Under the pieces are notes generated by a model. That model worked only from the letters and a program-made list of their open reading frames with translations. It searched no databases and was not told the DNA's origin. The position numbers and the translations under genes are program-made. This document shows positions 9,078 to 40,412 of a stretch of 42,231 nt of DNA, piece by piece. Each line of letters opens with the position of its first letter. Position 1 is the stretch's first letter. The stretch is from Candidatus Lindowbacteria bacterium RIFCSPLOWO2_12_FULL_62_27. GTDB taxonomy: Bacteria > Lindowbacteria > 2-12-FULL-62-27. The stretch is taken from contig MFPR01000035.1 in assembly GCA_001784175.1 (NCBI GenBank), forward strand, positions 1 to 42,231. Reading direction: 5' to 3'.

Positions 9078-9132
9078 GATATTCCAATACGTGGAGGCGG
9101 CGTGGAGTGTGACAGGTTCCGGCTATTTTGGA

Positions 9133-10143: not shown

Positions 10144-10604
10144 TGTCCTGCCTTCCCTCCACCAGCTGCTGTCCCCAAGCCATCCACGATCATTTTCGCG
10201 ATCAATCTCGACGTCCGGCGGCACTCTTGCGCAGCGGGATCGATGTCGCAGATGTCAACCGGTGTAACCGAGGAGCCGAGTAAGAGTCGATGCAGGACGT
10301 CGTTGCAAACGCGGCACTGATCTGCCAGCTTCTCCATCGACTTGGACAAGCCCTGCTCCGCCGTCAGGGCATCGATTTTTTTCAGGATTGAGCCCAGCGC
10401 GCTCACGTTGGCATGCTTGTAGAGTGCAGTCCGGCCGTCATGAAGAGCAAAATGAATATTCCGGTAGGCATCCGCGTAGTAGGAATGGTCGGAGAGGTAC
10501 AGAGACTGGGCAGCGTGGTCGGCCAGTTCTTTTGCGTCAATCAACTCTTTCAGTATCCGAGCGATAATTCCGGCGTCGTCGTTGGACATGGGAGCCACCT
10601 CCAA
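10140..10604 (-). CDS. Hypothetical helical protein
   Basis: Protein-like composition; GGAGG before MSNDD; stop coupled to the Dbr1-like gene. Confidence 0.7.
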   Translation of the reverse strand: MEVAPMSNDDAGIIARILKELIDAKELADHAAQSLYLSDHSYYADAYRNIHFALHDGRTALYKHANVSALGSILKKIDALTAEQGLSKSMEKLADQCRVCNDVLHRLLLGSSVTPVDICDIDPAAQECRRTSRLIAKMIVDGLGTAAGGGKAGQ

Positions 10605-22387: not shown

Positions 22388-24109
22388 TCACGTTGCCCGT
22401 TCACCTCTTTTTTTCCTCACCGTTTCGTTCAAATCGTGTAGGCGCTTCCCACTCTTCGTTTGCCAGTAGAGCGGCCCCGCCACCCCATGCTCGTCTGTCT
22501 TAAGCCCATGTTTCATTAAAAGCCTTTTCGCAAGCTCGGAAATTGAATAATCCTTCCCCTCGTATCTGAGGCGATTGGACTTGGAAACGATATTTGCCTG
22601 CTCTTGTTCGAATTTCTTCTTGTGGAAGAAATATAGTGGCTCGCCGTCGAAAATAAGCCCCAGTTCCACGAGTTCGCTTAACGTGACTACTCTGCCGCGC
22701 CCAGAGATTAATGGTATCGCGAAGTCTTCAATATGCTCGGCTTGAATGACCTCCTCAATAACCTTGAAAGTTTCTCTGTGAGCTTTTAAAACCGCCTTGG
22801 CAAGAGCAATAAATTTTCCGTCAGGTGCGGTGGAGGGATTTGCGAGGGCTGAGTCTGCAGTCGTCGAACGAAATTTCTCTCTCAACTCAAGAAGCGTTCT
22901 ATTGTAACTATCGGAATCGGGAGTATTTACTTTGAACCTGTCCCATCCACGACATACCCGCCCCCCCAATATCTCCTTCGCCGCGGATGAAGGAGCCTCA
23001 AAAACATGTTCATTGACTTTTATCCCACCGTCCACAACTTCGACCTCCTTTTCGACATCTCCTCTCTTGTAGATAAGGCGGTCGCCCACACGAAGCAATT
23101 TGGCGTCAATTAAATCAATGATGGAAACCAGAGATGTACCATGGGCTTCAACACTACTTTTCGGTGCGTCCTCACCGTCTACTCTGATTTGAGTAAGCAG
23201 GTTCAGAGGCGATATTTTATATTGCTTCTTATAATGCTCCTCCTTGCGCATAATTTCCTCCACCCATTTGCTTTCAGCGGGAGATATAGCAATCCTCCCG
23301 AATCCGGCATCACTTGGCGACGAAGCGAGATTACGAAGAAACTCTTGGATGATTTCACTTCCTTGGGACGAGAGAGACGGGTGCATGGCACAGGGCTTAA
23401 GCAGCTCATCTACGAGTTGTTGATAACTGAACGTTATGAAATCAGGCGACATGGCCCGGCGCCCTTGGGATTCTTTTCCTTCGGCATCGGGGCTCAAAAA
23501 TAGGAGCGCCCGGTACAATTTGTCTGCCCGACTACATTCGGGTTCGTCGAACAGACGTCCATCTCGGGAATCTTTGTGCTTATCCTCCAAGACATATTCT
23601 GCGTACTTGATTGTCTGATCTTTGGACTCTTTAGCTTTCACCTTGTTTTCACAAATGAAAAGTAGCCTTGAATGCTCGTTGTTCATTTCCATTTCTGCGG
23701 CGATGCAAACGTCGAAGCTCAGTTTGTTATTTCGCGTGTTTGAGAGATGCACAGTCAATTCACTCTGTTGTTCGGTACTTTGAGAGTCTGGCCACACCCG
23801 GCATCGGATAAGTTTCGCCTCGACGATGTATTCCAAGGGGGGAAGATGGATCCGCGCGCGCTTCTGTATGTCATCTCCATCATCCAATGACATGGCAATA
23901 AGCAACTGCCGAAAAGGGAAATCGCCAAGTTTGTGGCTGCCTTGGGGATTTAACAACCATGCGAGAAATGCAGAATGCCAGCGTTCCAAGTGTGTTGTGC
24001 CGAGGATCGAAAGAAATCCCGTAGACTTTAGATTATTCTCGATTGAGAGAAATGCCGGGTCGACCAAGAGGTCGCAGAGCTGTTTGATGTTTCTGATTTC
24101 TTCGTCCAT
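22388..24109 (-). CDS. PD-(D/E)XK nuclease with two C-terminal RAMA (DUF4357)-like domains
   Basis: ERWHSAFLAWLLNPQGSHKLGD, FDV, ICENKVKAKESKDQ..Y; repeats IIDLIDAKLLRVGDRL..F.APSSAA..GWDRF and LSELVELGLIFDGEPL..YSISELA..GPLYW. Confidence 0.8.
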   Translation of the reverse strand: MDEEIRNIKQLCDLLVDPAFLSIENNLKSTGFLSILGTTHLERWHSAFLAWLLNPQGSHKLGDFPFRQLLIAMSLDDGDDIQKRARIHLPPLEYIVEAKLIRCRVWPDSQSTEQQSELTVHLSNTRNNKLSFDVCIAAEMEMNNEHSRLLFICENKVKAKESKDQTIKYAEYVLEDKHKDSRDGRLFDEPECSRADKLYRALLFLSPDAEGKESQGRRAMSPDFITFSYQQLVDELLKPCAMHPSLSSQGSEIIQEFLRNLASSPSDAGFGRIAISPAESKWVEEIMRKEEHYKKQYKISPLNLLTQIRVDGEDAPKSSVEAHGTSLVSIIDLIDAKLLRVGDRLIYKRGDVEKEVEVVDGGIKVNEHVFEAPSSAAKEILGGRVCRGWDRFKVNTPDSDSYNRTLLELREKFRSTTADSALANPSTAPDGKFIALAKAVLKAHRETFKVIEEVIQAEHIEDFAIPLISGRGRVVTLSELVELGLIFDGEPLYFFHKKKFEQEQANIVSKSNRLRYEGKDYSISELAKRLLMKHGLKTDEHGVAGPLYWQTKSGKRLHDLNETVRKKRGERAT

Positions 24110-26170: not shown

Positions 26171-27557
26171 GAGAAATTGTCAAATGTTGTGGATCGCATG
26201 ATCAAGCGGCGATCCTTTCTTGCTCCTGAAATTGAACTCCATCTATGAAACGAATACCGTCCCGAACGAGTGCAACGAGTTCGGGTGCGTGAACTTTGGA
26301 CCAGCGTTTCTGCGCCGACTCCAACAACTTGAAGGCCATCATCAGCCCGGCGGTCCGGGATCCGGCGCCTTTCGTCACGCGCGTGCGGAGTTTGACGGTG
26401 GCGAAGGCCGACTCGATGGGATTGGTCGTCCGCAGATGTTTCCAGTGCGCGGCCGGGAAATCGAAATGCACGGCCAGGGCCTTACGATCCTTGAGCAGAC
26501 ACTCGGTGGCCTTGGGATATTTCGCCTGATACTCGGCCTCGAAGCGATTTGTTTCCTTGCTGAAAGTTTCCCGATCCGGCGCGTTCATAATTTCATGCAA
26601 CAAACGCTTGGCTTGGGGCTGGAGACGTTTTGGAAGTTTGTCCAGGACGTTGGCGATTTTATGTACCCAGCAGCGGCTTTCTTTGGTCTGCGGCCAAACA
26701 TTGCGGACCGCGGCCCAGAAGCCGAGCGCGCCGTCGCCGACGGCCAAGACCGGTGCTTTCATGCGGCGGCGTTTCAAATCCCGCAACACGCTTGCCCAAG
26801 ACTCCGTTGATTCGCGATAGCCGTCTTCGATTGCGACCACTTCCTTGTCTCCTTCCCTCGTCACACCGACAATCACCAGAAGACAGAGATTTTCTTCTTC
26901 GAGGCGGATCGACAGATGAACGCCGTCAGCCCAGAGATAGACATAATCTTTCTGCGACAAATCGCGCCGGCGGAATGCTTCATATTCCGCCTCCCAGACT
27001 TTTTTCAGCCGCGTGATCGTGGTCGCCGACAGTCCTTTCGCCTCATCGCCGAACAGGGCGCTCAGCGCCTCTCCGAAAGCTCCGGTTGACAGACCTTTCA
27101 AATACAACAGCGGCAAGACCTCCGTGACGTTTGCCGATTTCCGCAGATACGGCGGTAACACCACGCTTCGGAATCGTTTTCCTTCTCGCCCGTCGACGAC
27201 ACGCGGCGCCTCAATCACCACTTCACCCGACCCCACCAGCACTTTCCGCGGGCGGCCATATCCGTTGCGGGTCACCAGCGCGCGGTCTTTTGCGTCGCGA
27301 TATTCCTTCAGTCGCTGGACGTATTCATCCGTCTCGGCCTCCAACGCCTCGACGATCATCCGGCGAGCACCGCACCGGGCCAGATCATCCAAACTGACTT
27401 GCACCTCTGGCGTTTCTTTCTTCCACGTTGTAACTTTGAACATCGGCGTTCCTCCTTCGCCCGGTTCGAGCCGGGTTTTTGATTTGACACTCCGGTCAAA
27501 TCGGAAGGATACGCCGCTTTTTTGTATCACTCAATCCACAACTTTCGGTTATATCTC
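26171..27557 (-). mobile_element. IS256-family insertion sequence, 1387 bp
   Basis: Imperfect TIRs gagaaattgtcaaatgttgtggat and gagatataaccgaaagttgtggat; 9-bp TSD gaatttatt at 26162-26170 and 27558-27566. Confidence 0.95.
26202..27443 (-). CDS. IS256-family DDE transposase
   Basis: RNGY, LYLKGLST, YLWADGV, GYRESTESW, VGDGALGFW, RCWVHK, RTTNPIES; AAGGAGG RBS before MFKVT. Confidence 0.96.
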   Translation of the reverse strand: MFKVTTWKKETPEVQVSLDDLARCGARRMIVEALEAETDEYVQRLKEYRDAKDRALVTRNGYGRPRKVLVGSGEVVIEAPRVVDGREGKRFRSVVLPPYLRKSANVTEVLPLLYLKGLSTGAFGEALSALFGDEAKGLSATTITRLKKVWEAEYEAFRRRDLSQKDYVYLWADGVHLSIRLEEENLCLLVIVGVTREGDKEVVAIEDGYRESTESWASVLRDLKRRRMKAPVLAVGDGALGFWAAVRNVWPQTKESRCWVHKIANVLDKLPKRLQPQAKRLLHEIMNAPDRETFSKETNRFEAEYQAKYPKATECLLKDRKALAVHFDFPAAHWKHLRTTNPIESAFATVKLRTRVTKGAGSRTAGLMMAFKLLESAQKRWSKVHAPELVALVRDGIRFIDGVQFQEQERIAA

Positions 27558-28086
27558 GAATTTATTCCGTCTAAGATAATCAACAAGAACAAGTGCACGT
27601 TCCTCGAAACGATTGGCCGCAACAATCAATATCGGTCCTCTTAAGTGGTTTCTTTCGATTCTACGTTTTATGGTTTTTTCCTCTATCTGTGCGTCTTGGG
27701 AAATTTTCGCCATTTTATAGGCATTTTTGAAAAGGTGGAACCAGCTTATCAACCCCGTTTGCTTGGCATGCTCATCTGCAATTTCAAGTATTCTCGAAGC
27801 GTTCCAACGACTTGTTATAAACGAGGCATATTCCTGTAACTGTGCAACGACCTCTCTCCTCTGCTCTGGATTCTGAACCAATTTACATTCTACGATCAAC
27901 AGGGTACCTGTATCGTCAAGAAAGAGAAGATCAAGCGATCCAATCCCCGCCAAGGGTACTTGCCTGCCGATGGGTACCGCGATCTGCGCCTTGGGGTTTA
28001 TGTCAGCTATGGGAATGACCGTGGGAGTTGATTCGATTAATTGTTCAAACTGCTCTTCTTCCCCACTCGTAAAAGGTTTTTCCTTT

Positions 28087-28497
28087 TCATGGAGTGTTGT
28101 CATATCCGCCTCCTGTCGATAACCCCTCGATTTTCACAGCCCAATCCACTGATCCCACCGTTCCGGACATTCCCCGGATGGCTTCCACCAGTGCATGGAT
28201 GTATATCATGGACGGTTCGTCAGGCTCTACACCGAAATGCTGCCAGCGCCGCTGTTCGAAAAACAGCGCGGTGCGAAGGTCGGTCAGAGAGTCGGGCAGG
28301 CTACCGTCATCCAGATATGCCCCCAGAATCCGGTTCGCGATTTCTCCGCACTTTTCGCACGATTCCCAATGGTGGAAACCTCGAAAGGAGTACGCGAATG
28401 GCTCTATCTCCTCCCAGTGCGCCGTCGGGCCGGGGACGTCAGCCGACGTAAGTTCTGCATCGAAGATGTGCTCCCACCTTTTTTTATCCCAGTCCAT
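28087..28497 (-). CDS. Hypothetical protein; its 3' end is the target of the 6.7-kb insertion
   Basis: AAGGAG RBS; FAYSFRGF..LTDLRTALFFEQRRWQHFG; the C-terminus is duplicated at 21440-21476. Confidence 0.75.
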   Translation of the reverse strand: MDWDKKRWEHIFDAELTSADVPGPTAHWEEIEPFAYSFRGFHHWESCEKCGEIANRILGAYLDDGSLPDSLTDLRTALFFEQRRWQHFGVEPDEPSMIYIHALVEAIRGMSGTVGSVDWAVKIEGLSTGGGYDNTP

Positions 28498-28511
28498 TCG
28501 CCTCTCCTTTC

Positions 28512-29135
28512 TCAATGCTTTTCTTTTCGCTCGTAGTTCGCAATTCCCCTCTTCGCTATTCGAATCGACAATTCAACAAACGTGCATTTGTCCGCTCTGA
28601 AGATTGCGTTCAGGCCGATTTCGGACTCGCGCGTTTTGGCGGCGGCGAAATACTGTTCATCTTCGAATGCGTACAGCAGGGTGGACAGTGCCTCCTGATT
28701 GCGTTTGTGGATATCGATCATGACGCTATATTCGCCACGGATGCAGAATACCGCGCCTGCGTATTCGCTCATGTCGACCACGATGCGGATCAGTTCCGAT
28801 ACGCTGTCCGGCTGGATGGCCTTCTGGGCGCATGTCCTTTTCACGCCAGCGGCTGATGCTGAGATCAACTCGAACAGGCGGTACCAGTACATGCCGTCGT
28901 CATAGAGGTGGTGGGTCAGAAAATACTCGCGGTTTTTTTGTACAAGTTTGAGACCATCCCGGGACAATGACAACAGCTCGTCGAAAAGTCTCCCGTCAGG
29001 CCGTTCGACGGTACTCCATGGCGAATCCTCCTTCCGCGAAAGGTACGCCTTTTCAAGAGCCTGCAATCTGGCCCGGACATCGGCGAAATCCTTTTCCGCG
29101 GGGATCGGGATCAGAGGCATGAGGGAGTCATCCAT
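28512..29135 (-). CDS. Hypothetical helical protein
   Basis: 207 aa, overlaps the upstream gene, operonic. Confidence 0.7.
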   Translation of the reverse strand: MDDSLMPLIPIPAEKDFADVRARLQALEKAYLSRKEDSPWSTVERPDGRLFDELLSLSRDGLKLVQKNREYFLTHHLYDDGMYWYRLFELISASAAGVKRTCAQKAIQPDSVSELIRIVVDMSEYAGAVFCIRGEYSVMIDIHKRNQEALSTLLYAFEDEQYFAAAKTRESEIGLNAIFRADKCTFVELSIRIAKRGIANYERKEKH

Positions 29136-30075
29136 TCATCGTCGCCAGCCCGATGATCTCGTCGGCGGTGCGGAGGCGGGCGTCGGGGGAGTCGATGTCC
29201 CTGTCGAGGAGCGGGTCGATGTCGGGGATTTCAGCTTCGTCGTCAAAATCGAGAATGGCTTGTTCCAAGCCACCGAGATTCGTGGGGTCGGAGGGATCCG
29301 GTTTCTCACCCTGCCGCGCGTAACCCAGCCGCACGAACGCCTTCAAGTGCTCGATCAGCCGCAGGCGGGCCGGTCGATCCATGCCGATGGGCGGCAAGGG
29401 CTCGACTTTGATGCGTCCATCGTGCCAGACCGTCATGAAAACGCCGGATGCGGCGGCGACGTTAACCGCGTCGGGAATGGCGATTTGGACATCCAATCCG
29501 GCCGCTTTCAAGTTGCGATACAGTTGTTTGAGCCATTCGTGATCCAGATCCTCCTCGCGACTGACCAGAGCGTCGAAGTCAGGCTGATCGAACAGGGAGC
29601 GATTGAAGCGAGCGACACGGCCGTCCTTCAGCACGGCTTCGTACCACGCTCGCTCCGGCGTTTCGACAGCCACAATCCGCGTTGCCCGATTCTTGATCCA
29701 CGGCTCGTAGATGACAAACGCGATCATGAACTCGCGGATCCGCAGCGATTCGGCCACTGGATCCCTTGACGGAAGCCCTCCGTAGGGGAAGCGAAAAAAT
29801 AGATGGCCCCAGTCGTCGGCGCGGATGTAATAAAAGGTCCCCGCCCCGTCGCCGCTCCGCCCAAATCCAGTCAGGAGATACCCGTTCGGCGCCCTGCGCA
29901 GAAACTCCTCCGGATCGCCTGCTCGAAAGCGCGGATTCTCGCGCGCGGCGGCAGTTCCATAGATCGCCGTTCCGGGCGCAAGACGCACAAGGTCGAAGTC
30001 GTCGACCAACTGCCACGGGAATGCCCACGCCAGCTCATCGGCGAAGAGACGCTCAAGCTCGGAGGTGTCAGCCAT
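29128..30075 (-). CDS. Hypothetical protein
   Basis: 315 aa, GAGG RBS, acidic C-terminus, operonic. Confidence 0.7.
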   Translation of the reverse strand: MADTSELERLFADELAWAFPWQLVDDFDLVRLAPGTAIYGTAAARENPRFRAGDPEEFLRRAPNGYLLTGFGRSGDGAGTFYYIRADDWGHLFFRFPYGGLPSRDPVAESLRIREFMIAFVIYEPWIKNRATRIVAVETPERAWYEAVLKDGRVARFNRSLFDQPDFDALVSREEDLDHEWLKQLYRNLKAAGLDVQIAIPDAVNVAAASGVFMTVWHDGRIKVEPLPPIGMDRPARLRLIEHLKAFVRLGYARQGEKPDPSDPTNLGGLEQAILDFDDEAEIPDIDPLLDRDIDSPDARLRTADEIIGLATMNG

Positions 30076-30098: not shown

Positions 30099-30764
30099 TC
30101 ATCGTGCCGTGGTTCTCGCAACCCGGCGGCGGCCATGATTGGACTCGACACCGGCGGCTCCATTGTTTCTCTGCGTGTTTGAACGGCCGGCATTCGATAT
30201 TTCACGTGAGACATGACGAAGTTCCATTTTTCCGCCGCAACTACGGTGGAAAAAGCAAACGGTGTTGAATGTCTGTCTCAAAATCTCGGATGCCTTCTCC
30301 AGGCGCGGATATAAAGAGTGAATGGCACCCAAGGCGATTTCATTACCGCTTCCGATGGCCGCAAAATTATCAAAAACGCAAATATCCCGGCTTGCCGCGA
30401 CTTCAAACATTCGCCGCGATGTCGCGACCATGAACGACGCGTCGCTGAGTTTCGAAATTTCATTCTCCTTTGCCGAACCGAGCGAATACCGCTCTTTGAC
30501 AAAGGCATAGACGTGCTGAAAAAAATCGGTCACATCGTGTTCGTTATCGAAAGCGCTCTCATACATATCCCTTTTCCTATCCGCGAAGTAACGCAGGACA
30601 TTTTGAAACAGGACGTTGCCTGAGCAACCTATTAACGCGTTTTTGAAACGCGTGATTTTTGTTACATCTGACCTGTCCGTACGGACAATCCACCCCCAAG
30701 CGGTCAGGCTGTCCGCCATCATCCACATCTCGCCGTTCTTTTTTACTGCCGCAATGACTGTCAT
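30099..30764 (-). CDS. Ntn-hydrolase proteasome-like threonine protease (HslV/BPH-like)
   Basis: Starts M-T-VIAAVKKNGEMWMMADS (Thr1 nucleophile, ADS), KI, IGCSG, AAIGSGNEIALGA. Confidence 0.85.
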   Translation of the reverse strand: MTVIAAVKKNGEMWMMADSLTAWGWIVRTDRSDVTKITRFKNALIGCSGNVLFQNVLRYFADRKRDMYESAFDNEHDVTDFFQHVYAFVKERYSLGSAKENEISKLSDASFMVATSRRMFEVAASRDICVFDNFAAIGSGNEIALGAIHSLYPRLEKASEILRQTFNTVCFFHRSCGGKMELRHVSREISNAGRSNTQRNNGAAGVESNHGRRRVARTTAR

Positions 30765-30789: not shown

Positions 30790-31098
30790 TCAATCCTCCA
30801 CCCGCTTGATCTCGCCGGGTGTGTACTCCCGCTGGCGGCGGATGCGGTAGATGCCGGGTGTGATCGTGATGGCCGCATGCTCTTCGTGGACTAGCGACGT
30901 GTCGCCGGTGACTTCGGCGTAGATATCGCCGTCGGGCGCGTCGAAGAGGGCGACCGCCGATTCGTCGCTGAAGCGATGCCGGTGTCCGGTCGCCTCGCCG
31001 TAGGCTACTGTCAGGTCGGTTCGCGCTTTGAGTTTGTCCGGCATCGGGGATCCGGTTTTTATGATTAAAACGTCGCCCTGTCGGTACTGCTCGCTCAT
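30790..31098 (-). CDS. Small His-rich 'RQGDV' protein, habitual partner of DUF6745-like proteins
   Basis: YRQGDVLI, AYGEATGHRH, HEEH, PGIYRIRRQREY; GGAGG RBS. Confidence 0.85.
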   Translation of the reverse strand: MSEQYRQGDVLIIKTGSPMPDKLKARTDLTVAYGEATGHRHRFSDESAVALFDAPDGDIYAEVTGDTSLVHEEHAAITITPGIYRIRRQREYTPGEIKRVED

Positions 31099-31143: not shown

Positions 31144-33942
31144 TCAAGTCTCCAATACCGGGACGTACTCTTCAGGTTTGAATCCAAATGTCCATGCGGC
31201 GGCGTGGGTGCAGGTTTTCATCTCACCTCCCGCATCCTCCCAGAGTGATTCCTCGCGATCATCCCATTTTCCGCCCGCCGCGCGTCTCGCATCGCCCCGC
31301 CCGGGCGGGACGCGAAGGAACACATCGGCCGCAAGACCCAGACGCACTTTCGCCGGATCGATCACATGCAAAATCACCATGGGCTCGTCGTCCTGCAAAT
31401 AGATACGATAGAGTTTTCGCGGATTGCCCGCCGTATCCCGGTCTTCGTCCAGAACCGCCGGGGACGCCTCGCGAATGAACGAAGCCAGACCCTTGCGCGC
31501 GATCATCAGCCGCCGTACTTCAGCGTTCTTCTCGTTCAGGATTGTCTCGGCCGAGAGAGATTGCGGATCGTTGATCACGACGGGAGGCACAACCACCCCC
31601 CGGTATCGATAAATCTCAAGTCCGTCGCTCAATACCGCGGCCGGTCCGCTTTCTGAATGCAGACGATTCCCGGTCTGATCCACATCAATCTGTTTTGGGC
31701 GCGTCACGATGAAAACGGTCTTCTCCAATGCAAGAAATGTCCATCCTCCGCTTGCGTAGAACTGCTTCATAAAAGCCGCCTCTTTGCTGATTCGCTCAAG
31801 CTCGGCCTGCAAGGCGGCATCGCAGGGATCGGTTGATTGAAAATGCCGGGCGGCCAGGACCGAAAATATGATGTGATTGGACATCACGCGTTTGAGATCC
31901 CAGTAGCAGAAGAATTTTTGGGCGGATGTCAAATTCGGCGTGTCAGCGGTGGTAACCGGAACGTTGCTGTTAAAATGCATTGTGTTCATAATTTTGCCGA
32001 GCGCTTCGTTAACGGATTTCAGAAAAAGATCGCTGTCGTGAACCTGGCTGCAGATTCGTCTCAACCCGCCGGCCAGCATCGGATCAATGAAGATCGCGTC
32101 GTTTAATGCGTGGAGGGATTGCACGCAGGGATGCCTGCTCAACGCGTCCGTGACATGCCGGCCCAACGCCGTGAGGTACATTTGGGACGATTCTCTGCCA
32201 AATGTCGAATAGAGCGCCCGGGCCGGCGCTCCCGAGAATCCGATTTGGGCAAGAAGGTTGTAATTCTCCATTTTCACTTGATCGGACGACGGATGATCTC
32301 GTCCGCAAGCGCCCTCGCGCGTGTGCGACTGCTGGAAGTCCCGGGCGACTTCTGCGGCGATGAGGGGCGCGGCCGGGTGCGAGCAATAGACGATGTCGGC
32401 AGGCAGGCGTTTGCCGTGGATTTCGTAAAAATCGGAGATGGCGTCGAACAGCGCCACTTCATCCACGGCGGCTTGGGAGAGCAGGTCCGTCCAGTCCGAC
32501 ACAACGGAATTGACCATCCCGGTGTCCTCTTCAAACCACAATCGTGCCGGAGATGCGGCGGCACGCGGTTCGGATTGAACGGGACGACGAATCGTTCCAT
32601 CGTGCGATTGAACGGGCACGTTATTCGGGATTTCGTGCCGGCATAGGACGAAACATTTCCGGAAATATTCGGGGACATAAGCGTTGACCAGATTAAAAAA
32701 CGGGCGACGCAGTTCGAGCGAACGAACTTCGAAGATGATTTCAGAATAATATTTCTCCCCGAGCCTTGCCAATTCTTCTTCAAATGCGATTTTTTCCGGC
32801 GCGGATGAAAACTCGATGATGCCCGCGCCATTTACTGTCTGAATATTGCGGAGCAGGGCATTCTCCTGTTTGTCCGACAACGAAACAACCTGCAATATGC
32901 CGTTCTTGCCCTGAAGGCCGGAACAAATGGACGGTGCAAGCGCCCGGCGAACAGCCCCGAGGGAATCAGTCCCATCGGACCGCACAAAGGCGTCCAGAAT
33001 GGTCAGGGTGTCAACAATGGGAATGCGTTCCGACAACAGATCTTGAAACAGCGCGTGTATCTGGTCGAGCCCGAACTTATTGACCGCCATACCTACCATC
33101 AGCTCGTCATCTGCTTTTGCCTTGTCCAAGAGCAACTGTGTCTGGTCCATTGAGAAAAGGGACGCTGCGTGTCGAGCCGCGAATTCAAACAAATGGGAGG
33201 ACATTACCACCGCCGGCTCCGACAGATAATAACCGGATTTCTCGGCGAGTTCCCGCTGGTCGGGCTTGATCCAAATGGCCGGAGCATGAAACAGCCGCTC
33301 GACATACGGAATCCCCTCGATCTCATGCCCTCCCCCGTCGGTTTTCACGGCCAGTACTCTCTCCGGTTCAACGGTGCCGGATTCGATCTGCCTGCCCTTC
33401 AGGAGAAGGGTATATTCCTTTGGCCGAAGTTTCAGGTCATCCCGGATACGGACGGACGGCAGGGTCACACCGAATTCATTGGCGAACCGGGTTCGGACGT
33501 TGCTCACTGCATCAAGGAATCCGTCGGGCCCCGATTGTTCACGATCTACAAGGGGAATCAGATGGTAGGCGATATTGACTTCGAGCTGTTCGACGGATTT
33601 GGGGGTGATCTCATTATAGAAATAGGTCCGCGCCGGCCGATCGATTCGATAGATGAACGCCAGCACCTCGGCCACTGGCTGATAATATTCGGATGGTATC
33701 TCCTCATCAACTTTGACCTTTCTGCATAGAAGGTGCGCGAGGCCCGCATATTCATAATTCGGCAGACCGATTCGCTCTGCGAGCCGAATGACATGCTTGG
33801 CGGTCCTGCCTGACCACTTCCCAATGACACGCGGAGTTTTATCCTGTTCGGGTCGATATGAAATCGCGACCGCCGGACCAGTCCCGCCAAAAATGAGAAC
33901 GTCGGAATCGTTCTTTGGTTGAATTCGAACGTCCATCGTCAC
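31144..33942 (-). CDS. Fusion protein: FlhB C-terminal domain, FlhA (FHIPEP) cytoplasmic domain and DUF6745-like domain
   Basis: AVAISY..PRVIGK..LAHLL..DEEIPSEYYQPVAEVLAFIY (FlhB-C); LEVNIAYHLIPLVD..FGVTLPSVRIRDDLKL..LLSERIPIVDTLTILD (FlhA-C); RLHSESGPA..DG..Y.GVVVP..NAEVRR..FLRVPP..AAAWTFG (DUF6745-like). Confidence 0.85.
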   Translation of the reverse strand: MTMDVRIQPKNDSDVLIFGGTGPAVAISYRPEQDKTPRVIGKWSGRTAKHVIRLAERIGLPNYEYAGLAHLLCRKVKVDEEIPSEYYQPVAEVLAFIYRIDRPARTYFYNEITPKSVEQLEVNIAYHLIPLVDREQSGPDGFLDAVSNVRTRFANEFGVTLPSVRIRDDLKLRPKEYTLLLKGRQIESGTVEPERVLAVKTDGGGHEIEGIPYVERLFHAPAIWIKPDQRELAEKSGYYLSEPAVVMSSHLFEFAARHAASLFSMDQTQLLLDKAKADDELMVGMAVNKFGLDQIHALFQDLLSERIPIVDTLTILDAFVRSDGTDSLGAVRRALAPSICSGLQGKNGILQVVSLSDKQENALLRNIQTVNGAGIIEFSSAPEKIAFEEELARLGEKYYSEIIFEVRSLELRRPFFNLVNAYVPEYFRKCFVLCRHEIPNNVPVQSHDGTIRRPVQSEPRAAASPARLWFEEDTGMVNSVVSDWTDLLSQAAVDEVALFDAISDFYEIHGKRLPADIVYCSHPAAPLIAAEVARDFQQSHTREGACGRDHPSSDQVKMENYNLLAQIGFSGAPARALYSTFGRESSQMYLTALGRHVTDALSRHPCVQSLHALNDAIFIDPMLAGGLRRICSQVHDSDLFLKSVNEALGKIMNTMHFNSNVPVTTADTPNLTSAQKFFCYWDLKRVMSNHIIFSVLAARHFQSTDPCDAALQAELERISKEAAFMKQFYASGGWTFLALEKTVFIVTRPKQIDVDQTGNRLHSESGPAAVLSDGLEIYRYRGVVVPPVVINDPQSLSAETILNEKNAEVRRLMIARKGLASFIREASPAVLDEDRDTAGNPRKLYRIYLQDDEPMVILHVIDPAKVRLGLAADVFLRVPPGRGDARRAAGGKWDDREESLWEDAGGEMKTCTHAAAWTFGFKPEEYVPVLET

Positions 33943-34060: not shown

Positions 34061-36625
34061 TCACTTCGAACCCCCATCAAAATCTTTTCGATACATCTTT
34101 TCGGTCACGATTCGGTGCCCTGCCGACAACGAAAGCCACACATCGACTTCAGATTCCGACAGGACCGCGATGCCGTCATTCTCCGGCGATAGAATCTCAT
34201 AAATGGCCCGGCGGGTTGTTGGTGGAGCGATTATAACCGGCCGCCGGCCGACAGATTTTGTGGCGGCGATGCTCTCGGCGAAAAACGACTTTGCTTGCTC
34301 CGCAGCCTCCGGCGAACTCATCTCCGCCTGCGTTGCGACACCGGCTTCAATTGCATGGAGAACTCCATCTGTGCCGGCCAGGCGGTCGCAGATGATGGGC
34401 GCCAACACGTGCCGCACCCGCTCGACCATCTCCGAGAGGGGCGCGTTTGAATCGAGCGATAGGAGTGTGTCCAATATAAGTGTGATGTCCTTGATGGGCA
34501 CATGTTCACGCACCAATTCCCGCAAAACGGATGTGACTTTCCTGGCTCCGATGCCTTTTTCGACCTCCTCCGCGAGCCTGGCGCACTTGTCTTTGACGAT
34601 ATCAAGAAGGCTTTCGGTGTGCTCTCGCGAAACGAGCAACCAGGCATTTTGGCGCAACGCGTGCTCCAAGTGTTTTGCGATGACTGTAGGAGGGTCGTAG
34701 ACGGTACAACCGGCTTGGAACGCCCTGACAGCATCATCTGGATCGATCCAAATCCCAGACTGCCCGCTGACCGGCTCCCGCACCACGTCACCTCGAAACT
34801 GCGTTGTCGCGGGGCCGATCGCCATCAGCCGATCTGGCCGTAACTCACCCCGGCCTCGCCGCATGCCTCTGATCAGAATCTCGTAATAACGGGGCGGTAG
34901 GGAGTGAGATACTCTTGTTTCAACTTGCGGAAGGATCAGGCCAAACTCGTTCGCTAAACGAAATCGAATTTGGGCGGACACATCGGCGAAGAACATAGGC
35001 TCAAGTTCATATTCGGTCAGAATATGGACATCTGTCTGAGCAACACTTTCCTCAATTTCCGTCCCTCTCTCACGCCAAATCTTGGGATCAGGCCGCCCGT
35101 GAGCCCTGTCGAAGGCGAGCGCATCCCGATAAACGTCATTTAAGGGCCCACGAAGTGCCGGTTGAACCATCTGGTCTTCGATACAATTATTCCACAACGC
35201 TGTCATCAGGATTTCGTCCGATTTGACGATTTTACGATATTTTCGGGCCCGTTCGATGAGTTTGTCCGCTTTGGCACCGGTCCATTTGGCCTTGCAGACA
35301 GGTTGGACGACACGCAGAGGCTCCATTCGTTCGAGTATGCTGCCGGCTTCGGATGCCTGAGGACACAACTCATAATCGACAGCGACGACTCGCCGGTTCG
35401 AAGTAATCAAGAACTTGAAAGATAATTTCCTGACCTCAGCGGCACTGTCCTCATCAAGCGAATCCGCCTCCAGTTCGGTTTCCTGGGCGCCTGACCCGGC
35501 CGACTCGGGAACACATCTAACGCGACCCTCCTCGAGTTTGACGTTGACAACTGTCGAAGACTTTACAGGCAGAAGGTCGTACATCACAGGTTCGAGTTCT
35601 TTGGCGAGGAGTTGCTGGAGCCCACGCGCGCCTATTTGTGTCTTCACAGCAGTGTGGACGAAGTGGCTGAATACCGCCGGCTCGATGTTCAGCTGCAAGC
35701 CATCTTTTGCAAACTCCGCCGCCGCATGTTTCGATGCCTCCGACTGGACGATGGCAAGCAACGTCTGTTCATCGAGCGGGTCAAACGTGACGACGCGCCG
35801 GAACCGTGCGATCAATTCCGGCATAAACCCGAATTTCTTAAAATGCTCGATGTTATCGATCTCCTCTTCGGTAAAAGCTGCGGCAATCTGTTCGGAGTCG
35901 GATTTGTCCGCAGCACCTAAAAATCCGATGTTCGGCCCGCCATGAATGGAGCGTACGGCAGTCTTGAATCCAGAGAACGCCCCACATGCGATAAATGAAA
36001 TGTGGGATGTCGACATTTGAAAGGACGGATCGTCGTGCCCTTCAGGTACATCGACGCGAGCGCCGTCGAGCATCTTTAGAAGCTCCCGCTGGACACCGTA
36101 TCCGCTGACATCCTGATATTCGCTGCGTTTCCCGGCAGTCTTGTCGAACTCATCCAAGCAGACGACACCACACTCGGCCTTGAAGCGGTTCCCATCAGCC
36201 ACGGTTATCAGGCTCTTCAGAATCTTGATTACATCCATACCGTGATAGCCTGTCTGTGAATAATTGGTCATATCAGCGATGAACACCGGGACTTTGAGAA
36301 TTTTAACAAACAGCAGATCCACCAGATGGGTCTTCCCGCTGCCCGTGGGTCCCATCATGAGGTAATTGAGTTTCGGCGGGCCGACGACCGCATGTCCAGC
36401 ATCTTGATTGGCGGCCGCATATTGCTTGATGCGCTTGATATGCCGGTGCGCCATGAGACACAAAGCCCGGCGGGCCCGCACCTGCCCTCGATACCCCAGT
36501 GACTCCAGTTTATCGAACAATTCTTTCGGTGAAGGCACGACCAACTTCCTCGCCCATTCCCTGAAGGTTTCCCTGTCCTCGTCTTCGTCAGCCACGAAAG
36601 ATTTCACCCCTTTCCGAATAACCAA
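34061..36625 (-). CDS. Fusion protein: ClpX-type AAA+ ATPase (no Zn-binding domain) and FlhA (FHIPEP) cytoplasmic domain
   Basis: GQ..A, GPTGSGKT, TGYHG, LDEFDK, DVSGYGVQRELLKMLDG, FIACGAFSG, IGF, GFMPELIARF, GARGL; C-terminus LANEFGLILPQV..REPVSG..IWI..GCTVYDPPTVIAKHL..VLRELVREHVPIKDITLILDTL. Exact start uncertain. Confidence 0.88.
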   Translation of the reverse strand: MVIRKGVKSFVADEDEDRETFREWARKLVVPSPKELFDKLESLGYRGQVRARRALCLMAHRHIKRIKQYAAANQDAGHAVVGPPKLNYLMMGPTGSGKTHLVDLLFVKILKVPVFIADMTNYSQTGYHGMDVIKILKSLITVADGNRFKAECGVVCLDEFDKTAGKRSEYQDVSGYGVQRELLKMLDGARVDVPEGHDDPSFQMSTSHISFIACGAFSGFKTAVRSIHGGPNIGFLGAADKSDSEQIAAAFTEEEIDNIEHFKKFGFMPELIARFRRVVTFDPLDEQTLLAIVQSEASKHAAAEFAKDGLQLNIEPAVFSHFVHTAVKTQIGARGLQQLLAKELEPVMYDLLPVKSSTVVNVKLEEGRVRCVPESAGSGAQETELEADSLDEDSAAEVRKLSFKFLITSNRRVVAVDYELCPQASEAGSILERMEPLRVVQPVCKAKWTGAKADKLIERARKYRKIVKSDEILMTALWNNCIEDQMVQPALRGPLNDVYRDALAFDRAHGRPDPKIWRERGTEIEESVAQTDVHILTEYELEPMFFADVSAQIRFRLANEFGLILPQVETRVSHSLPPRYYEILIRGMRRGRGELRPDRLMAIGPATTQFRGDVVREPVSGQSGIWIDPDDAVRAFQAGCTVYDPPTVIAKHLEHALRQNAWLLVSREHTESLLDIVKDKCARLAEEVEKGIGARKVTSVLRELVREHVPIKDITLILDTLLSLDSNAPLSEMVERVRHVLAPIICDRLAGTDGVLHAIEAGVATQAEMSSPEAAEQAKSFFAESIAATKSVGRRPVIIAPPTTRRAIYEILSPENDGIAVLSESEVDVWLSLSAGHRIVTEKMYRKDFDGGSK

Positions 36626-36743: not shown

Positions 36744-39230
36744 TTACCCCTGGTTGAACACGGCTTCTCTCACTGGCTCGTCTATGCTCTCGAACCGGGA
36801 TGAACTCAATATTTCGGCGACTGCGCTCCTCGGTTTCGGATATCGCGGCGATGCGCCGAACGGCGATATTCGAATCACGTCCTTTGGTGGCGGCTCAAGC
36901 CATACAACCCAGTCATCAGCGAGTTTCCTTTGCGACATCAATCCGGCAGCCTCATCGAACAAGGCACGGTAAATCCTGGCGCGCCGGGCATCTTTCATCG
37001 CTTCGTATGCCAGCGACAGGCCACGGTGGGGATGAGCGTTGGAAGGATCGTCGGCGAGCGCGCGGTGGAAGCATTTAGCGGCATCGTGGTTCTCTCCCGC
37101 GCGAAGGTGGACTCCGCCGAGCAACATCCAGACATAGCTTGCGAATGATGAGCGAATTCCACCTCTCTTGCCCCGGCTCTTTTCAACATCCGATCGTGTC
37201 AGAAGCGGCCAGCGCTCGAAGACCGGCCGCATGGGCCGGGGTGACCTGGCGATTTCGGCGAGAACCTGATCAAGGCGGATTCTGGCATCGGCATCCCGTC
37301 CACGGAAAATCGCGATCTCCGCCAAGTACAGCCACGTGCGGACTTCATCGACCTTGACGTCCAGTGCACGTTGCGCGGCGCGCTCGGCCTGATCATACCT
37401 GCCCAGCAAGATGCAGAGCCGGACGATCCGGCGGATGTTGTGGACATCCGACGGATTGACCTTGCATCCGATATCCGCCCATTTAACAGCCTGTTCGTAC
37501 AGCCCCCGGTTGCGGAACGAATCCGATACCCATCCAATGGTAAATGAATTGCTCGGGTCGATCCGATAGGCCTTCATGAGGACCTTGTCGGCGCGACCGT
37601 TGTCGCCGACGTCACGCAAGACACGCGCAAGACGTTGAAGGGTGCGGACATTGCGGGGGTCGAGCCGGTGCGCCTTTTCCATCCATTCAAGTGCTTTGGT
37701 GTATTTTTTCATGCCTCGATAAACATAGGCGATCTGCCTGACCGCCCACTGATTTTTTGGGATAATCTGATGGCACTTCATGAACCACTGGATCGATTCA
37801 TCCCAGGCGCGCATATCGCGGCAAATATATCCCATCTGCGCTATTGTGCTCGCGTTGTCGGGGTCGATTTCGAGTGCGCGCTTAAGCCACTCCTTGGCCC
37901 GGGTGAAATCGTTTCTTTCACGCTCAAGGAACGACATTTCATTGAGATTGCCGACGTCACGGGGGTCAAGCAGATACGCCCTTTGGAGCCAACGAACGGC
38001 TTCGTCGAACCGGCCGAGTTTGCGGTTGACCTCGCCAACCTTTGCGTAACCGACAGGATCGGCCGGCTGGAGGGCGATGGATTTTTCCAGGAAGCGGAGG
38101 GCGAGTTTTTCGTCCACTCGCCACATTTCGATCGCGGCGATACGGTAGACATACGGATCCTTGGACCTGAGATTGCCGAGCAACCGCGCTTCGCGCCGCG
38201 CCTCATCCAGCCGCCCGCTTCGCCGGAGGATTTTGACAAGAAGCAGTCTGGCGAACACGGCTGTCAGCCTGTCCTCGATACATTCGCGGACCATTTCCTC
38301 CATCTTGCGGTCGGGGTTCAAAGTACCTTGCAGAGTCGCCATGCCCCAAGCGACCTTCCATATTTTTTGTCTCGGAAATTTCTCCGCGAATAATTTGTAC
38401 TGACCGATGACCGACGGCATTCCGAGTTCCTGGCGACATCGAATGTCCATCCATATCGCCGGAAGATAGGTGGGATGCGATTTGAGAACCCGGTCCAGTA
38501 AGAAAAGCGCGTAATCACTGTCGTATGCGTCAAATTTCCTGGCGGCCAGCCGGAAATAATAATCGTCTTTCGCTTCTTTTGCACGAGGAGCCGACGGGTC
38601 CAGAGAAAGATACTGGCCGACGATCGCTGTCCGCGCCTTGCGCTCGCCAATTCCTGAAATCCGCGCCACGGCCGGCGCCGCCAATGACGAAAACCTTAGA
38701 AACTCGTCCAACCTGCGCTGATGAATTTCCGGATCGATCAGTGCGATGGGGGGGCCCATTCTGGTCGAATCGACATTCCCGGCGTCTATGGCAGATCCCC
38801 CGCGGTCCAGGTAAGCCGTAACCTGACGCATGGCTGATGCGTGAACCGTCCCGTGGAATCTGTGTTCCAAGGAGAGAAGCGTTTCCGTCAGCATCGGGAG
38901 TTCAGCCCAGCATTCGACAGCCATCGGGATGTCAAGATCATTCTCTGCCGGGGGGATGCGAATATCACCGGGCGCAAGTTTATCCAGCCGGATTGTCACT
39001 GGGACGAGCCGGAAGGCGGGACCATCCGCCGAGCCATCTGCGCACACGGCGTGCGTCACGACAAAACTCAAGAGGTCCCGGCCGGACTTGACCGACCAAA
39101 ACTGTCCGGGCCGTATTGCGTCCGGTTCTGTTTCGGTCTTGGCCATCCGCCTCAACGTGTTTTTCGTGGTCATGGTGTTATCACTTCCATTGAGCGCGGC
39201 GCCGTTCAGACGGTACCGGCTGTTCTCCAT
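36744..39230 (-). CDS. Multi-TPR protein with an uncharacterised N-terminal domain
   Basis: Many 34-aa repeats (e.g. AKVGEVNRKLGRFDEAVRWLQRAYLLDP, AKEWLKRALEIDPDN); N-terminal IRPGQFWSV..VECWAELP domain. Confidence 0.88.
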   Translation of the reverse strand: MENSRYRLNGAALNGSDNTMTTKNTLRRMAKTETEPDAIRPGQFWSVKSGRDLLSFVVTHAVCADGSADGPAFRLVPVTIRLDKLAPGDIRIPPAENDLDIPMAVECWAELPMLTETLLSLEHRFHGTVHASAMRQVTAYLDRGGSAIDAGNVDSTRMGPPIALIDPEIHQRRLDEFLRFSSLAAPAVARISGIGERKARTAIVGQYLSLDPSAPRAKEAKDDYYFRLAARKFDAYDSDYALFLLDRVLKSHPTYLPAIWMDIRCRQELGMPSVIGQYKLFAEKFPRQKIWKVAWGMATLQGTLNPDRKMEEMVRECIEDRLTAVFARLLLVKILRRSGRLDEARREARLLGNLRSKDPYVYRIAAIEMWRVDEKLALRFLEKSIALQPADPVGYAKVGEVNRKLGRFDEAVRWLQRAYLLDPRDVGNLNEMSFLERERNDFTRAKEWLKRALEIDPDNASTIAQMGYICRDMRAWDESIQWFMKCHQIIPKNQWAVRQIAYVYRGMKKYTKALEWMEKAHRLDPRNVRTLQRLARVLRDVGDNGRADKVLMKAYRIDPSNSFTIGWVSDSFRNRGLYEQAVKWADIGCKVNPSDVHNIRRIVRLCILLGRYDQAERAAQRALDVKVDEVRTWLYLAEIAIFRGRDADARIRLDQVLAEIARSPRPMRPVFERWPLLTRSDVEKSRGKRGGIRSSFASYVWMLLGGVHLRAGENHDAAKCFHRALADDPSNAHPHRGLSLAYEAMKDARRARIYRALFDEAAGLMSQRKLADDWVVWLEPPPKDVIRISPFGASPRYPKPRSAVAEILSSSRFESIDEPVREAVFNQG

Positions 39231-39236
39231 CCATCA

Positions 39237-40412
39237 TTATGAATGTCCTTTTCCCGTAATATTCTGATACTCGTAGCAAATCCTGCAAAAATCACCGACC
39301 AGCAATTCCCGATACCTGTCATAGTATTGAGCGCCTCCACGCTCAATGCCGAGAACATTTCGAAGTTGTTCCATCGCGTTCCGGCGTTCCACGGTGGCTT
39401 GGGCATTCTGCAGACCCACGGTGATACCCAGACGCCGGGCAGACACCTTTTTCACACGCCCCGTCTTGGGATCGTGGTGCAAAGCCATAATCTCGATTTG
39501 TCGGGGCGTCAGGAAATTACCCGAGTGGACCAATCGTTCCAAGTATTCGACATGCCGCTTGTAGTCGACTGCGTCCTGAAGATCAAACGGATCCGCTTCA
39601 AGATCGAGCAAATTCACTTTTTTGGCCGGGTCGTCCGGATCCGGCCGTTCGGCCGGTACGAACGCCGGGTGGCGTTCGTCGAACAGACCCTTGATGATAT
39701 TGCAAAGTGTAGATGTACCAAGGCCGACATTCTTCCGCTCGTAGATATTGCCCGCAACGTCAAACGCTGCCTTGACGATTTCGGCGGCGTATCTCGGACG
39801 AAATTCCCGTATCCGGCTTGCTTGAAACCACGCATCCAGCCCCCGGACGAGGCAGGCACGCGCATTGGAATCCATGGGGACGAGCGGCATTCGGACTCTG
39901 GAGGCCAGAACATACATGCGGTCGGACGCTCCATGCAGGTCCACCGACCCGCTGACGGGGATCAGTTCCCCCTTGGAGGCGGCCATCTTGAAGGCTGTGG
40001 CAATCGGTTTATAGACCCTTTGATTCTTTCGATGAGAACCTTTCATGCAGCGCTCGGCCACCGTCTCCAGCGTCATCACGAACCGGCCCGCTCGGGTCTG
40101 CCCCCGACGCCGGTATTCAGGCGCGATTTTTCTGTTGCGGCCCTTGTAGCCCCTGTAAAGAACCTCCTGTGCGGCGTCAAGGACGTCCTCGTCGGTCGGA
40201 CCGTATACCTGAACATCATCTCTTTGAAACCGCCGCCAGATGCGTCTGACGGTCTCACGGTGCAATTGAACAAACCACGGAGTCGAAAAATCGGCGGCAT
40301 CCGCACTCTTAAAATACTCCTCCACCAATTCCTCGAACTGAGTGTTCGGTATCCGAGACCATCGATGTAGTCGTTGTGCTATTCGTTGGCCGCCTCCTGC
40401 CATCGTCTGCAT
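39237..40412 (-). CDS. Hypothetical protein, possibly a highly divergent sigma-like regulator
   Basis: DEDVLDAAQEV (region-2-like) and LTPRQIEIMAL..SARRLGIT..RRNAMEQLR (region-4-like); ends 6 nt before the TPR gene. Confidence 0.55.
   Translation of the reverse strand: MQTMAGGGQRIAQRLHRWSRIPNTQFEELVEEYFKSADAADFSTPWFVQLHRETVRRIWRRFQRDDVQVYGPTDEDVLDAAQEVLYRGYKGRNRKIAPEYRRRGQTRAGRFVMTLETVAERCMKGSHRKNQRVYKPIATAFKMAASKGELIPVSGSVDLHGASDRMYVLASRVRMPLVPMDSNARACLVRGLDAWFQASRIREFRPRYAAEIVKAAFDVAGNIYERKNVGLGTSTLCNIIKGLFDERHPAFVPAERPDPDDPAKKVNLLDLEADPFDLQDAVDYKRHVEYLERLVHSGNFLTPRQIEIMALHHDPKTGRVKKVSARRLGITVGLQNAQATVERRNAMEQLRNVLGIERGGAQYYDRYRELLVGDFCRICYEYQNITGKGHS

Follow-up and report, generated by a model that had tools for sequence, protein, structure and literature searches.

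A soluble FlhB_C-FlhA_C-DUF6745 triple fusion that has lost the NPTH autocleavage site, in a mobile or defence-like island of a Candidatus Lindowbacteria bacterium

FlhA_C and FlhB_C, the cytoplasmic domains of FlhA and FlhB, are textbook components of a single apparatus, the type III export gate. We analyzed a stretch of 42,231 nucleotides from Candidatus Lindowbacteria bacterium RIFCSPLOWO2_12_FULL_62_27 (GenBank assembly GCA_001784175.1, contig MFPR01000035.1, positions 1 to 42,231; hereafter the window, meaning this stretch at its full length), in which a single gene joins domains of both types, without their membrane parts, to a helical region and a DUF6745 domain (Table 1). The open reading frame (ORF) opens with a GTG at position 33942 and comprises 932 uninterrupted codons. 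In the gene call of another assembly the start is the ATG two codons later, and residues 1–548 of that protein (P0001) correspond to query residues 3–550.

All three Pfam domains of the predicted protein exceed their gathering scores. Bac_export_2 (FlhB family, Pfam PF01312) matches residues 11–97 with positions 249–335 of its 335-position profile (expectation value, E, 1.1e-17; 64.7 bits vs. a cut-off of 24.4), FHIPEP (FlhA family, Pfam PF00771) matches residues 116–442 with positions 329–656 of 657 (E 2.5e-52), and DUF6745 (Pfam PF20530) matches residues 709–889 (E 3.6e-28; 98.7 bits vs. a cut-off of 27). The profile matches begin only at the cytoplasmic parts, so that both the four-helix membrane domain of FlhB and the multi-helix membrane domain of FlhA are missing. 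No transmembrane segment was found in the fusion, the highest mean hydropathy over 19 residues being 1.2 (threshold 1.6). The protein also falls far under every whole-protein cut-off of the NCBIfam FlhA, FlhB and SctU/V equivalogs, with 61.9 bits vs. 349.25 for TIGR00328 (FlhB) and 187.1 bits vs. 772.1 for TIGR01398 (FlhA).

Comparison with solved structures allows the two gate domains to be delimited. The FlhB_C-like domain is matched by 24 solved FlhB/SctU-type sequences at E up to 0.01, and residues 11–102 align over the whole of FlhB_C (3b1s, 3b0z), including the strand that precedes the cleavage loop; unlike these FlhB and SctU proteins, the domain has no four-helix membrane part, scores below every NCBIfam FlhB/SctU cut-off and is fused to other domains. 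Residues 116–446 cover subdomains D1–D4 of FlhA_C and SctV (3mix, 3myd, 3a5i, 6ai0), with 3mix_A aligning over query residues 13–342 of 347, but again the membrane domain is absent, and the setting of the gene is non-flagellar. The DUF6745 part has the H, N, E, RR and W positions that do not vary across the family.

The motif at which FlhB cleaves itself is not retained. Residue by residue against solved FlhB chains, G19-G20-T21-G22 of the fusion align on the N-P-T-H of 'DVIVTNPTHYSVALQY'; the string DVLIFGGTGPAVAISY occurs in the translation of the fusion. The genome's own FlhB retains NPTH (DVVITNPTHYAVALRY), and an orthologue of the fusion, P0002, has SETD at this position. Judged from this alignment, FlhB-type autocleavage at Asn-Pro cannot occur in the fusion by the known mechanism, because the NPTH site is gone. 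Asn-Pro autocleavage of FlhB is described as switching export specificity (PMC7911332).

An earlier, sequence-only reading of this DNA had proposed a triple fusion of this composition, with about 100 N-terminal residues resembling FlhB_C, without the autocleavage site and without either membrane domain, and had compared the order of the gate domains with that of the genes flhB and flhA. The profile matches, the alignment on NPTH and the hydropathy scan bear this description out. The authentic genes are found on another contig (C1), where flhB (C1:129863-130894) sits directly upstream of a full-length flhA (C1:131005-132963), and the domain order of the fusion mirrors this gene order. A gene-call artefact joining flhB and flhA was ruled out, as the FlhA membrane domain of approximately 330 aa is absent from the fusion and the authentic genes lie elsewhere.

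Table 1. Positions in the window of the triple-fusion gene, its parts and the surrounding genes, with the basis of each assignment.
Feature	Position	Strand	Basis
Whole gene: soluble FlhB_C::FlhA_C::helical::DUF6745 protein, 932 aa, probable ATG start 33936	31144..33942	-	ORF, three Pfam domains, collinear orthologue
FlhB_C-like domain, residues ~11-102	33637..33912	-	Pfam Bac_export_2; Aquifex FlhB_C chain 3b1s_B, E 5.5e-12
GGTG, residues 19-22, where the NPTH autocleavage motif would be	33877..33888	-	Alignment to full-length FlhB chains
FlhA_C-like domain, residues ~116-446, subdomains D1-D4	32605..33597	-	Pfam FHIPEP; Bacillus FlhA_C chain 3mix_A
Helical region, residues ~476-708, common to free-standing DUF6745 proteins such as P0013	31819..32517	-	P0013 match and model
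DUF6745 and conserved C-terminal tail, residues 709-932	31147..31818	-	Pfam PF20530; domain model
Partner gene, 102 aa, RQGDV / GExTGHxH / HEEH motifs	30790..31098	-	phrog_27831, E 2.8e-17
ClpX-like AAA+ unfoldase without zinc-binding domain, fused to a second FlhA_C-like domain	34061..36625	-	NCBIfam ClpX, FHIPEP
BPH-like (HslV-derived) N-terminal nucleophile (Ntn) peptidase, Thr directly after the initiator Met	30099..30764	-	PDB BPH 5ovs_A, phrog_1040
TPR-repeat protein, 828 aa, 118 nt upstream of the ClpX-like gene	36744..39230	-	Pfam TPR families
391-aa protein	39237..40412	-	No Pfam, NCBIfam, PHROG or PADLOC family
Four tightly packed downstream genes, 315/207/142/184 aa, the last a PD-(D/E)XK/Cas4-like nuclease	27549..30075	-	Overlapping or near-touching ORFs
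315-aa protein	29128..30075	-	No Pfam, NCBIfam, PHROG or PADLOC family
207-aa protein	28512..29135	-	No Pfam, NCBIfam, PHROG or PADLOC family
142-aa protein	28087..28515	-	No Pfam, NCBIfam, PHROG or PADLOC family
Serine recombinase	709..2511		
Two metallophosphatases	8445..10224		
GmrSD	12002..14884		
UvrD-type helicase and PD-(D/E)XK nuclease	15034..21415		
PD-(D/E)XK and RAMA	22388..24109		
Mutator-family transposase	26202..27530		

Proteins of this architecture are very rare. When 5.8 billion protein clusters were searched by word index, 12 proteins matched at E up to 1e-5. Two of them contain FlhB_C plus FlhA_C, namely P0001, a 559-aa fragment identical to the fusion, and P0002; the remaining ten are ordinary FlhA proteins of 663–723 aa. 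A full HMMER scan of 1.84 billion representative proteins gave 9032 hits at E up to 0.001, and among the best 150 of these P0002 was the only other full-length example. The literature search found no paper for the term DUF6745 and, judged from titles and abstracts, no description of membrane-less FlhA_C or FlhB_C fusions. On these searches the architecture is neither common nor characterized.

P0002 comes from a related Candidatus Lindowbacteria genome (G003), has 930 aa with all three domains, and is 59% identical to the fusion. A short run within the last codons of the gene in G003 reads X in translation (L018, G003 contig 148, ~6680-6720), and its C-terminus was taken from P0002. Fusion and orthologue align collinearly, with only 6 gap positions in 932, and their identity is 59% in FlhB_C, 60% in FlhA_C, 54% in the helical region and 67% in DUF6745. 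The roughly equal conservation of all parts, together with the collinearity, speaks for a functional gene. The object is real and intact as well as very rare.

The C-terminal half of the fusion (residues 476–932) corresponds to free-standing proteins of 400–480 aa, such as P0013 (464 aa), which matches these residues with 48% identity. DUF6745 is widespread (220 hits), and 56–73% of the members of the nearest Atlas clusters of short DUF6745 forms are viral or bacterial-with-viral. The small partner gene, which the sequence-only reading had taken to be a usual companion of DUF6745, lies 45 nt downstream of the fusion gene. Its relatives adjoin a DUF6745 gene, upstream or downstream, in 6 of 7 distinct loci of related genomes (the sole locus without an adjacent partner is on contig 13 of G001) and in both phage records with a DUF6745 match, Mycobacterium prophage prophiGD102-1 (genes 37/38) and the environmental Caudoviricetes MW202476. 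The phage and prophage proteins thus share with the fusion the DUF6745 domain and the adjacent partner gene, but theirs are without FlhB_C or FlhA_C and lie among early or replication genes. Atlas labels the partner fold PF31129, and since this fold matches part of a 366-aa viral DUF6745 cluster (predicted structure), the comparison suggests that some viral DUF6745 proteins contain the partner domain.

Structure prediction with the partner, which had been put forward as a check, favours binding. The DUF6745 domain and the partner scored 0.75, 0.74 and 0.75, vs. 0.00 for the best of three controls; in a calibration that is rough only, the alignments being custom, the 0.75 mark was attained by 58 of 80 solved complexes and by 2 of 110 mismatched pairs. 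The runs share at least 95% of their contacts, the predicted local distance difference test (pLDDT) of the partner is at least 81, and the predicted interface includes the most conserved motifs of DUF6745, LRVPP and AWTFG. The model supports DUF6745-partner binding. The C-terminal half was modeled with a pLDDT of 77.6, its helical region with moderate confidence, and DUF6745 alone with a pLDDT of 83.8. No match to a solved fold was found for the C-terminal half (Foldseek against PDB, best E 0.048; VIA-align wide, best Z 4.5, root-mean-square deviation 4.2, 74 residues) or for DUF6745 alone (Foldseek, best E 0.44; VIA-align wide, best Z 5.0, 43 residues of the leading helix only), which does not demonstrate a new fold. 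In PHROGs the DUF6745 part has no family at E up to 0.01. A related-loci search with the single C-terminal-half sequence gave no relative, while a smaller alignment gave 4 loci; a search for 12-nt-period repeat arrays found none.

Within a same-strand array that extends from position 40412 down to 27549, with spacings from 4-nt overlaps to 118-nt gaps, the fusion occupies fourth place. The order of the array is a 391-aa protein, a TPR-repeat protein, the ClpX-like::FlhA_C fusion, the triple fusion, the partner, the peptidase, three proteins of unknown family and a nuclease. The gene directly upstream of the triple fusion thus encodes a further FlhA_C-like domain, at the C-terminus of a ClpX-like protein (NCBIfam ClpX, E 1.9e-62, under the cut-off; FHIPEP over residues 550–828, E 1.7e-48). 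ClpX recruits adaptors and substrates through its zinc-binding domain and uses its IGF loop to dock on heptameric ClpP. Compared with the ClpX encoded elsewhere in the genome, the N-terminal Cys-rich domain is missing from the fused protein, which retains GPTGSGKT, GYHG, LDEFDK and IGF, and with them the Walker A and B motifs, the pore-loop Tyr (in GYHG) and the IGF tripeptide. The upstream protein is therefore like ClpX in its AAA+ module and IGF tripeptide, but differs in lacking the zinc-binding domain and in carrying FlhA_C. When a second ClpX::FlhA_C protein was sought by word-index search, only the protein itself was found among 8000 scored candidates, a search of limited sensitivity that leaves uniqueness unproven.

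The peptidase downstream of the partner is closest to BPH. It matches the BPH chain 5ovs_A (E 1.4e-12), its Thr aligned to Thr1 of BPH, and the HslV-family phrog_1040 (E 1.9e-15). BPH itself is a tetradecamer that is reported to have no known partner unfoldase (PMC5777263); the peptidase here is encoded two genes downstream of the triple fusion, in the same array as the ClpX-like protein. A canonical HslV was not found in this 94%-complete genome, in which clpP-clpX are present elsewhere. Among the remaining genes of the array, the 184-aa nuclease matches the PADLOC candidate PDC-S11 (E 3.4e-13).

Part of this arrangement recurs in G003, where two short contigs each hold a portion of the orthologue. 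Upstream of it is a gene that encodes 497 aa, with an N-terminal HELAH region, an FlhB_C-like domain that has DSKK at the NPTH position, and a partial FlhA_C; a peptidase nature of this protein is only hinted at, by its HExxH motif and a sub-threshold match. The genes downstream encode a metallophosphatase, the free-standing P0013 (two genes after the fusion), the partner directly after it, a TPR protein, a nuclease related to the 184-aa protein of the window, a HAD-like protein and finally a protein that has the C-terminus of the 315-aa protein. TPR proteins flank both cassettes, and the G003 contig encodes relatives of both the 315-aa and the 184-aa protein. Two genera thus keep membrane-less FlhA_C genes as adjacent pairs, with a different N-terminal part fused to the first member in each. 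In all, two near-identical HExxH::FlhB_C::FlhA_C genes were observed in G003 (L036 1226-2719 and L034 1210-3078, both on the minus strand), the second copy on another contig, and the gene after this copy encodes an HPFxxGNGR motif, which we take to be a Fic signature. In the G003 protein that has the C-terminus of the 315-aa protein, this part is joined to TPR repeats.

This distribution bears on the possibility that DUF6745 and its partner are the whole functional unit and do what they do in phages and prophages, that FlhB_C-FlhA_C just multimerizes or localizes it, and that the protease genes are unrelated cargo of the island. DUF6745 and the partner do stand alone as a pair in related genomes and phages, the short forms cluster with viral members as described above, G003 has the free-standing P0013 and partner right beside the fusion, G001 has three DUF6745 matches and one FlhA_C match, and the BPH-like gene is missing from the G003 contig. 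Unrelated neighbors would, however, hardly explain why in both genera the gene upstream of the fusion carries FlhA_C; the array genes are separated by no more than 118 nt where they do not overlap, and the three parts of the fusion are equally conserved. We regard this explanation as unlikely.

The surroundings of the array are those of an island. The window contains a serine recombinase and, interrupting the same-strand array, a Mutator-family transposase. It also encodes GmrSD, a UvrD-type helicase with a PD-(D/E)XK nuclease, and a PD-(D/E)XK+RAMA protein (Table 1), and its GC content dips to 0.48–0.49 at 22–26 kb. Apart from the gate-derived domains, no flagellar genes are present in the window. 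There are no tRNA genes in it either, and promoter-like and terminator-like sites occur in it at chance level (8 vs. 7.4 and 19 vs. 16.3, respectively). The locus is an island of mobile or defence-like character, and the genome's own flhB-flhA lie far away. In the collection searched, the order of this bacterium is represented by 4 genomes, and the FlhA_C pair is found in 2 of them; the cassette is accessory, because G001 and G002 show only ordinary FlhA and FlhB. Two metallophosphatases were also observed in the window.

In such a fast-changing island the fusion might have arisen by accident, as a lineage-specific rearrangement without selected function that is drifting to loss. Its extreme rarity (one other full-length example), the transposase within the array and the loss of NPTH and of the dimple residues discussed below would be in keeping with this. 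The frame is nevertheless open over 932 codons, every domain is conserved in an orthologue of another genus (59% identity, only 6 gap positions), and the DUF6745 motifs are kept and placed at the predicted partner interface. We consider an accidental origin without function very improbable.

FlhA_C is a ring-former, and in the flagellum FlhB_C binds FlhA_C. On these grounds, the gate domains of the fusion may serve as docking or oligomerization modules that link a DUF6745-partner complex of phage type to ATP-dependent proteolysis within a mobile cassette of conflict type, a reading that we hold tentatively, at somewhat less than an even chance. In outline, an uncleavable FlhB_C-like domain and a complete FlhA_C-like domain would have been detached from the flagellar export gate and fused to a phage-type module, the helical region plus DUF6745, that would bind the small protein encoded by the adjacent gene. 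The fusion belongs to a pair of membrane-less FlhA_C proteins encoded side by side, whose other member carries putative protein-degradation machinery: the ClpX-like unfoldase here and the HExxH region in the related genome. The gate-derived domains would no longer select flagellar cargo but act in docking or oligomerization, holding the DUF6745-partner complex beside an ATP-dependent protease composed of the ClpX-like unfoldase and either the BPH-like peptidase of the operon or host ClpP. The cassette would be accessory, horizontally mobile and defence or addiction-like, with proteolysis controlling the DUF6745-partner complex. Docking between the two FlhA_C proteins, the link to the protease and the role in conflict are steps that we infer.

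The residues with which FlhA selects cargo provide a further comparison. Chaperone-substrate complexes of late flagellar cargo bind FlhA_C at a dimple, and the residues there that touch the chaperone are Asp456, Phe459 and Thr490 (PMC5916509). We compared these positions (D456/F459/T490, Salmonella FlhA numbering) in 53 aligned sequences. All 21 true FlhA proteins have [DE]/[FY]/T, vs. E/F/S in the triple fusion, D/R/G in the orthologue P0002, E/S/K in the ClpX fusion, E/S/H in a protein encoded on contig C30 of the same genome and E/T/S in the HExxH protein of G003. The triad of the orthologue pair differs from that of FlhA, conservatively so in the triple fusion. In the island-type Lindowbacteria group, constraint seems to have relaxed on the surface that selects cargo while the fold was kept, so that a structural or docking role would fit better than a role as a decoy for flagellar components.

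As such a decoy or regulator, the soluble FlhB_C-FlhA_C protein would bind export substrates, chaperones or the FliH/I/J ATPase complex and, with the ClpX-like::FlhA_C protein, titrate or degrade them. In this way the island could stop or adjust the assembly of flagella, for instance as a barrier to phages that depend on them. With its complete flhB-flhA the bacterium is probably flagellated, the FlhA_C domain of the fusion spans D1–D4 with E/F/S at the dimple, and, of the 22 other membrane-less FlhA_C proteins compared, 18 retain F or Y at position 459. The attached FlhA_C could serve as the substrate receptor of a ClpX that lacks its zinc-binding adaptor domain, and an uncleavable FlhB_C could be a fixed-state binder comparable to the non-cleavable FlhB(N269A) of Salmonella, which remains in early-substrate mode (PMC7911332). 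On the other hand, the orthologue has R and G at F459 and T490 and the ClpX fusion S and K, the window is without a flagellar gene, and all 4 genomes of the order have FlhA and FlhB but only 2 the cassette. In a quick tree the fusion FlhA_C stands on a long stem apart from the lineage's own FlhA, and DUF6745 and its partner are given no role. We judge a flagellar decoy to be improbable. The earlier suggestion of a non-cleavable, soluble export-gate mimic accordingly stands in part: the protein is soluble and without NPTH, but the island setting, the unconserved dimple and the proteolysis genes next to it do not support its acting as a mimic of the flagellar export gate.

The descent of the gate domains was examined with a quick tree of FlhA_C, in which the long branches (ClpX fusion, C30 and HExxH proteins) are not placed reliably. 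In this tree the fusion and its orthologue form a pair with full support and a stem of 1.71 changes per site, and no supported tie links the pair to the lineage's own FlhA. Within this genome, the four copies of FlhA_C share 28–39% identity with each other, and the fusion FlhA_C is ~32% identical to that of the genome's own FlhA. A recent duplication of the genome's own FlhA_C was ruled out by the divergence of the four copies.

Several observations weigh against the docking reading. The architecture is carried by two genomes only, and the G003 copy lies on short, broken contigs. None of the triple fusion, the ClpX fusion, the partner and the peptidase matched a defence family in PADLOC-DB 2.0. 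The HExxH region of the G003 protein reaches Peptidase_MA_2 below threshold (E 0.03; 14.5 bits vs. a cut-off of 32.4); it has no PDB sequence match, and its Pfam peptidase matches are all sub-threshold. No BPH-like gene is present on the G003 contig. By the residues compared, dimple loss is not general, most other membrane-less FlhA_C proteins keeping the dimple, and the conservative E/F/S of the triple fusion makes chaperone binding by this copy possible. The fusion possibly carries an effector or scaffold, as had been proposed, but calling the DUF6745-partner complex an 'effector' is a guess, because DUF6745 and the partner have no known activity or recognizable fold.

A further step would be to regard the export-gate docking domains as the substrate-selecting or assembly platform of a protease formed by the ClpX-like::FlhA_C protein and a BPH-type peptidase, recruited by FlhA_C/FlhB_C contacts, whose action on the DUF6745-partner complex switches on a mobile immunity or addiction response. 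We consider this distinctly unlikely; if true, it would be a new kind of mobile immunity or addiction system. If the gate domains are docking rings for proteolysis or conflict systems, they would provide a new example of machine parts recruited into mobile systems, and the docking reading would make DUF6745, a family common in phages, and the missing unfoldase of BPH accessible to experiment. Should the ClpX-like::FlhA_C protein work with a BPH-type peptidase, BPH would gain the partner unfoldase that it is reported to lack (PMC5777263). If the domains are flagellar decoys instead, mobile elements would have a new way to control motility.

To place the fusion among its relatives, we surveyed the 148 best HMMER hits besides P0001 and P0002 with a crude hydropathy scan, some entries being gene fragments. 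FlhA aligns to 137 of the 148. Full-length FlhA, with five or more hydrophobic segments, accounts for 54 of the 148, and about 40 of the 148 have no hydrophobic segment and align to the cytoplasmic domain only; 18 of these 40 have a Met start and an unrelated N-terminal extension of >40 aa. Four of the best hits are FlhB_C::FlhA_C fusions, in which NPTH is kept (P0027) or lost (P0034, P0049, P0076), and others carry TPR or HEAT repeats. The quick tree requires at least 6 changes between membrane-less and full-length FlhA forms. Wherever the context is available, the genes for membrane-less FlhB_C/FlhA_C fusions lie outside flagellar operons. The triple fusion, its ClpX-fused neighbor and the other membrane-less forms show the gate domains as free modules outside secretion.

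Two groups of membrane-less proteins can be compared with the triple fusion. The FlhB_C::FlhA_C fusions of ~470-620 aa (P0027, P0034, P0049, P0076 and the loci L041 and L042) share its gate domains, their order and the absence of a membrane part, and three of the four P-numbered proteins share the loss of NPTH; they differ in having no DUF6745 module and in an FlhA_C that does not group with that of the triple fusion in the quick tree, and P0049 and P0076 keep the FlhA dimple. The small free-standing FlhB-like proteins of TIGR00789 (flhB_rel) likewise have a membrane-less FlhB_C-type domain, which aligns with residues 24–101, but the fusion, at 59.3 bits vs. a cut-off of 117.35, is not a member, and its domain heads a multidomain protein of 932 aa.

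Some further membrane-less genes were observed. The two Spirochaetia loci, L041 (1559-3412, plus strand) and L042 (1635-3284, plus strand), encode FlhB_C::FlhA_C proteins of 549–617 aa without NPTH, and their neighbors are AAA+, vWA-like, LRR and DUF4116-repeat genes. The fourth FlhA_C gene of the genome studied here, on contig C30 (L092 6227-7441, plus strand), encodes a 404-aa protein with the reverse order, FlhA_C::FlhB_C, and a twin-arginine-like N-terminus (SRRGFF); the gene for a 502-aa AAA protein follows it, and a gene for a SLOG (YAcAr) domain protein faces it. Twin-arginine-like signals (SRRRFLQ, MERREFLQ) are also seen on membrane-less FlhA_C proteins at L032 1096-2451 (plus strand, G003 contig 343) and in P0034. 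Export of an FlhA_C domain would be unexpected. The G003 protein of L032 groups with the lineage's own FlhA in the quick tree.

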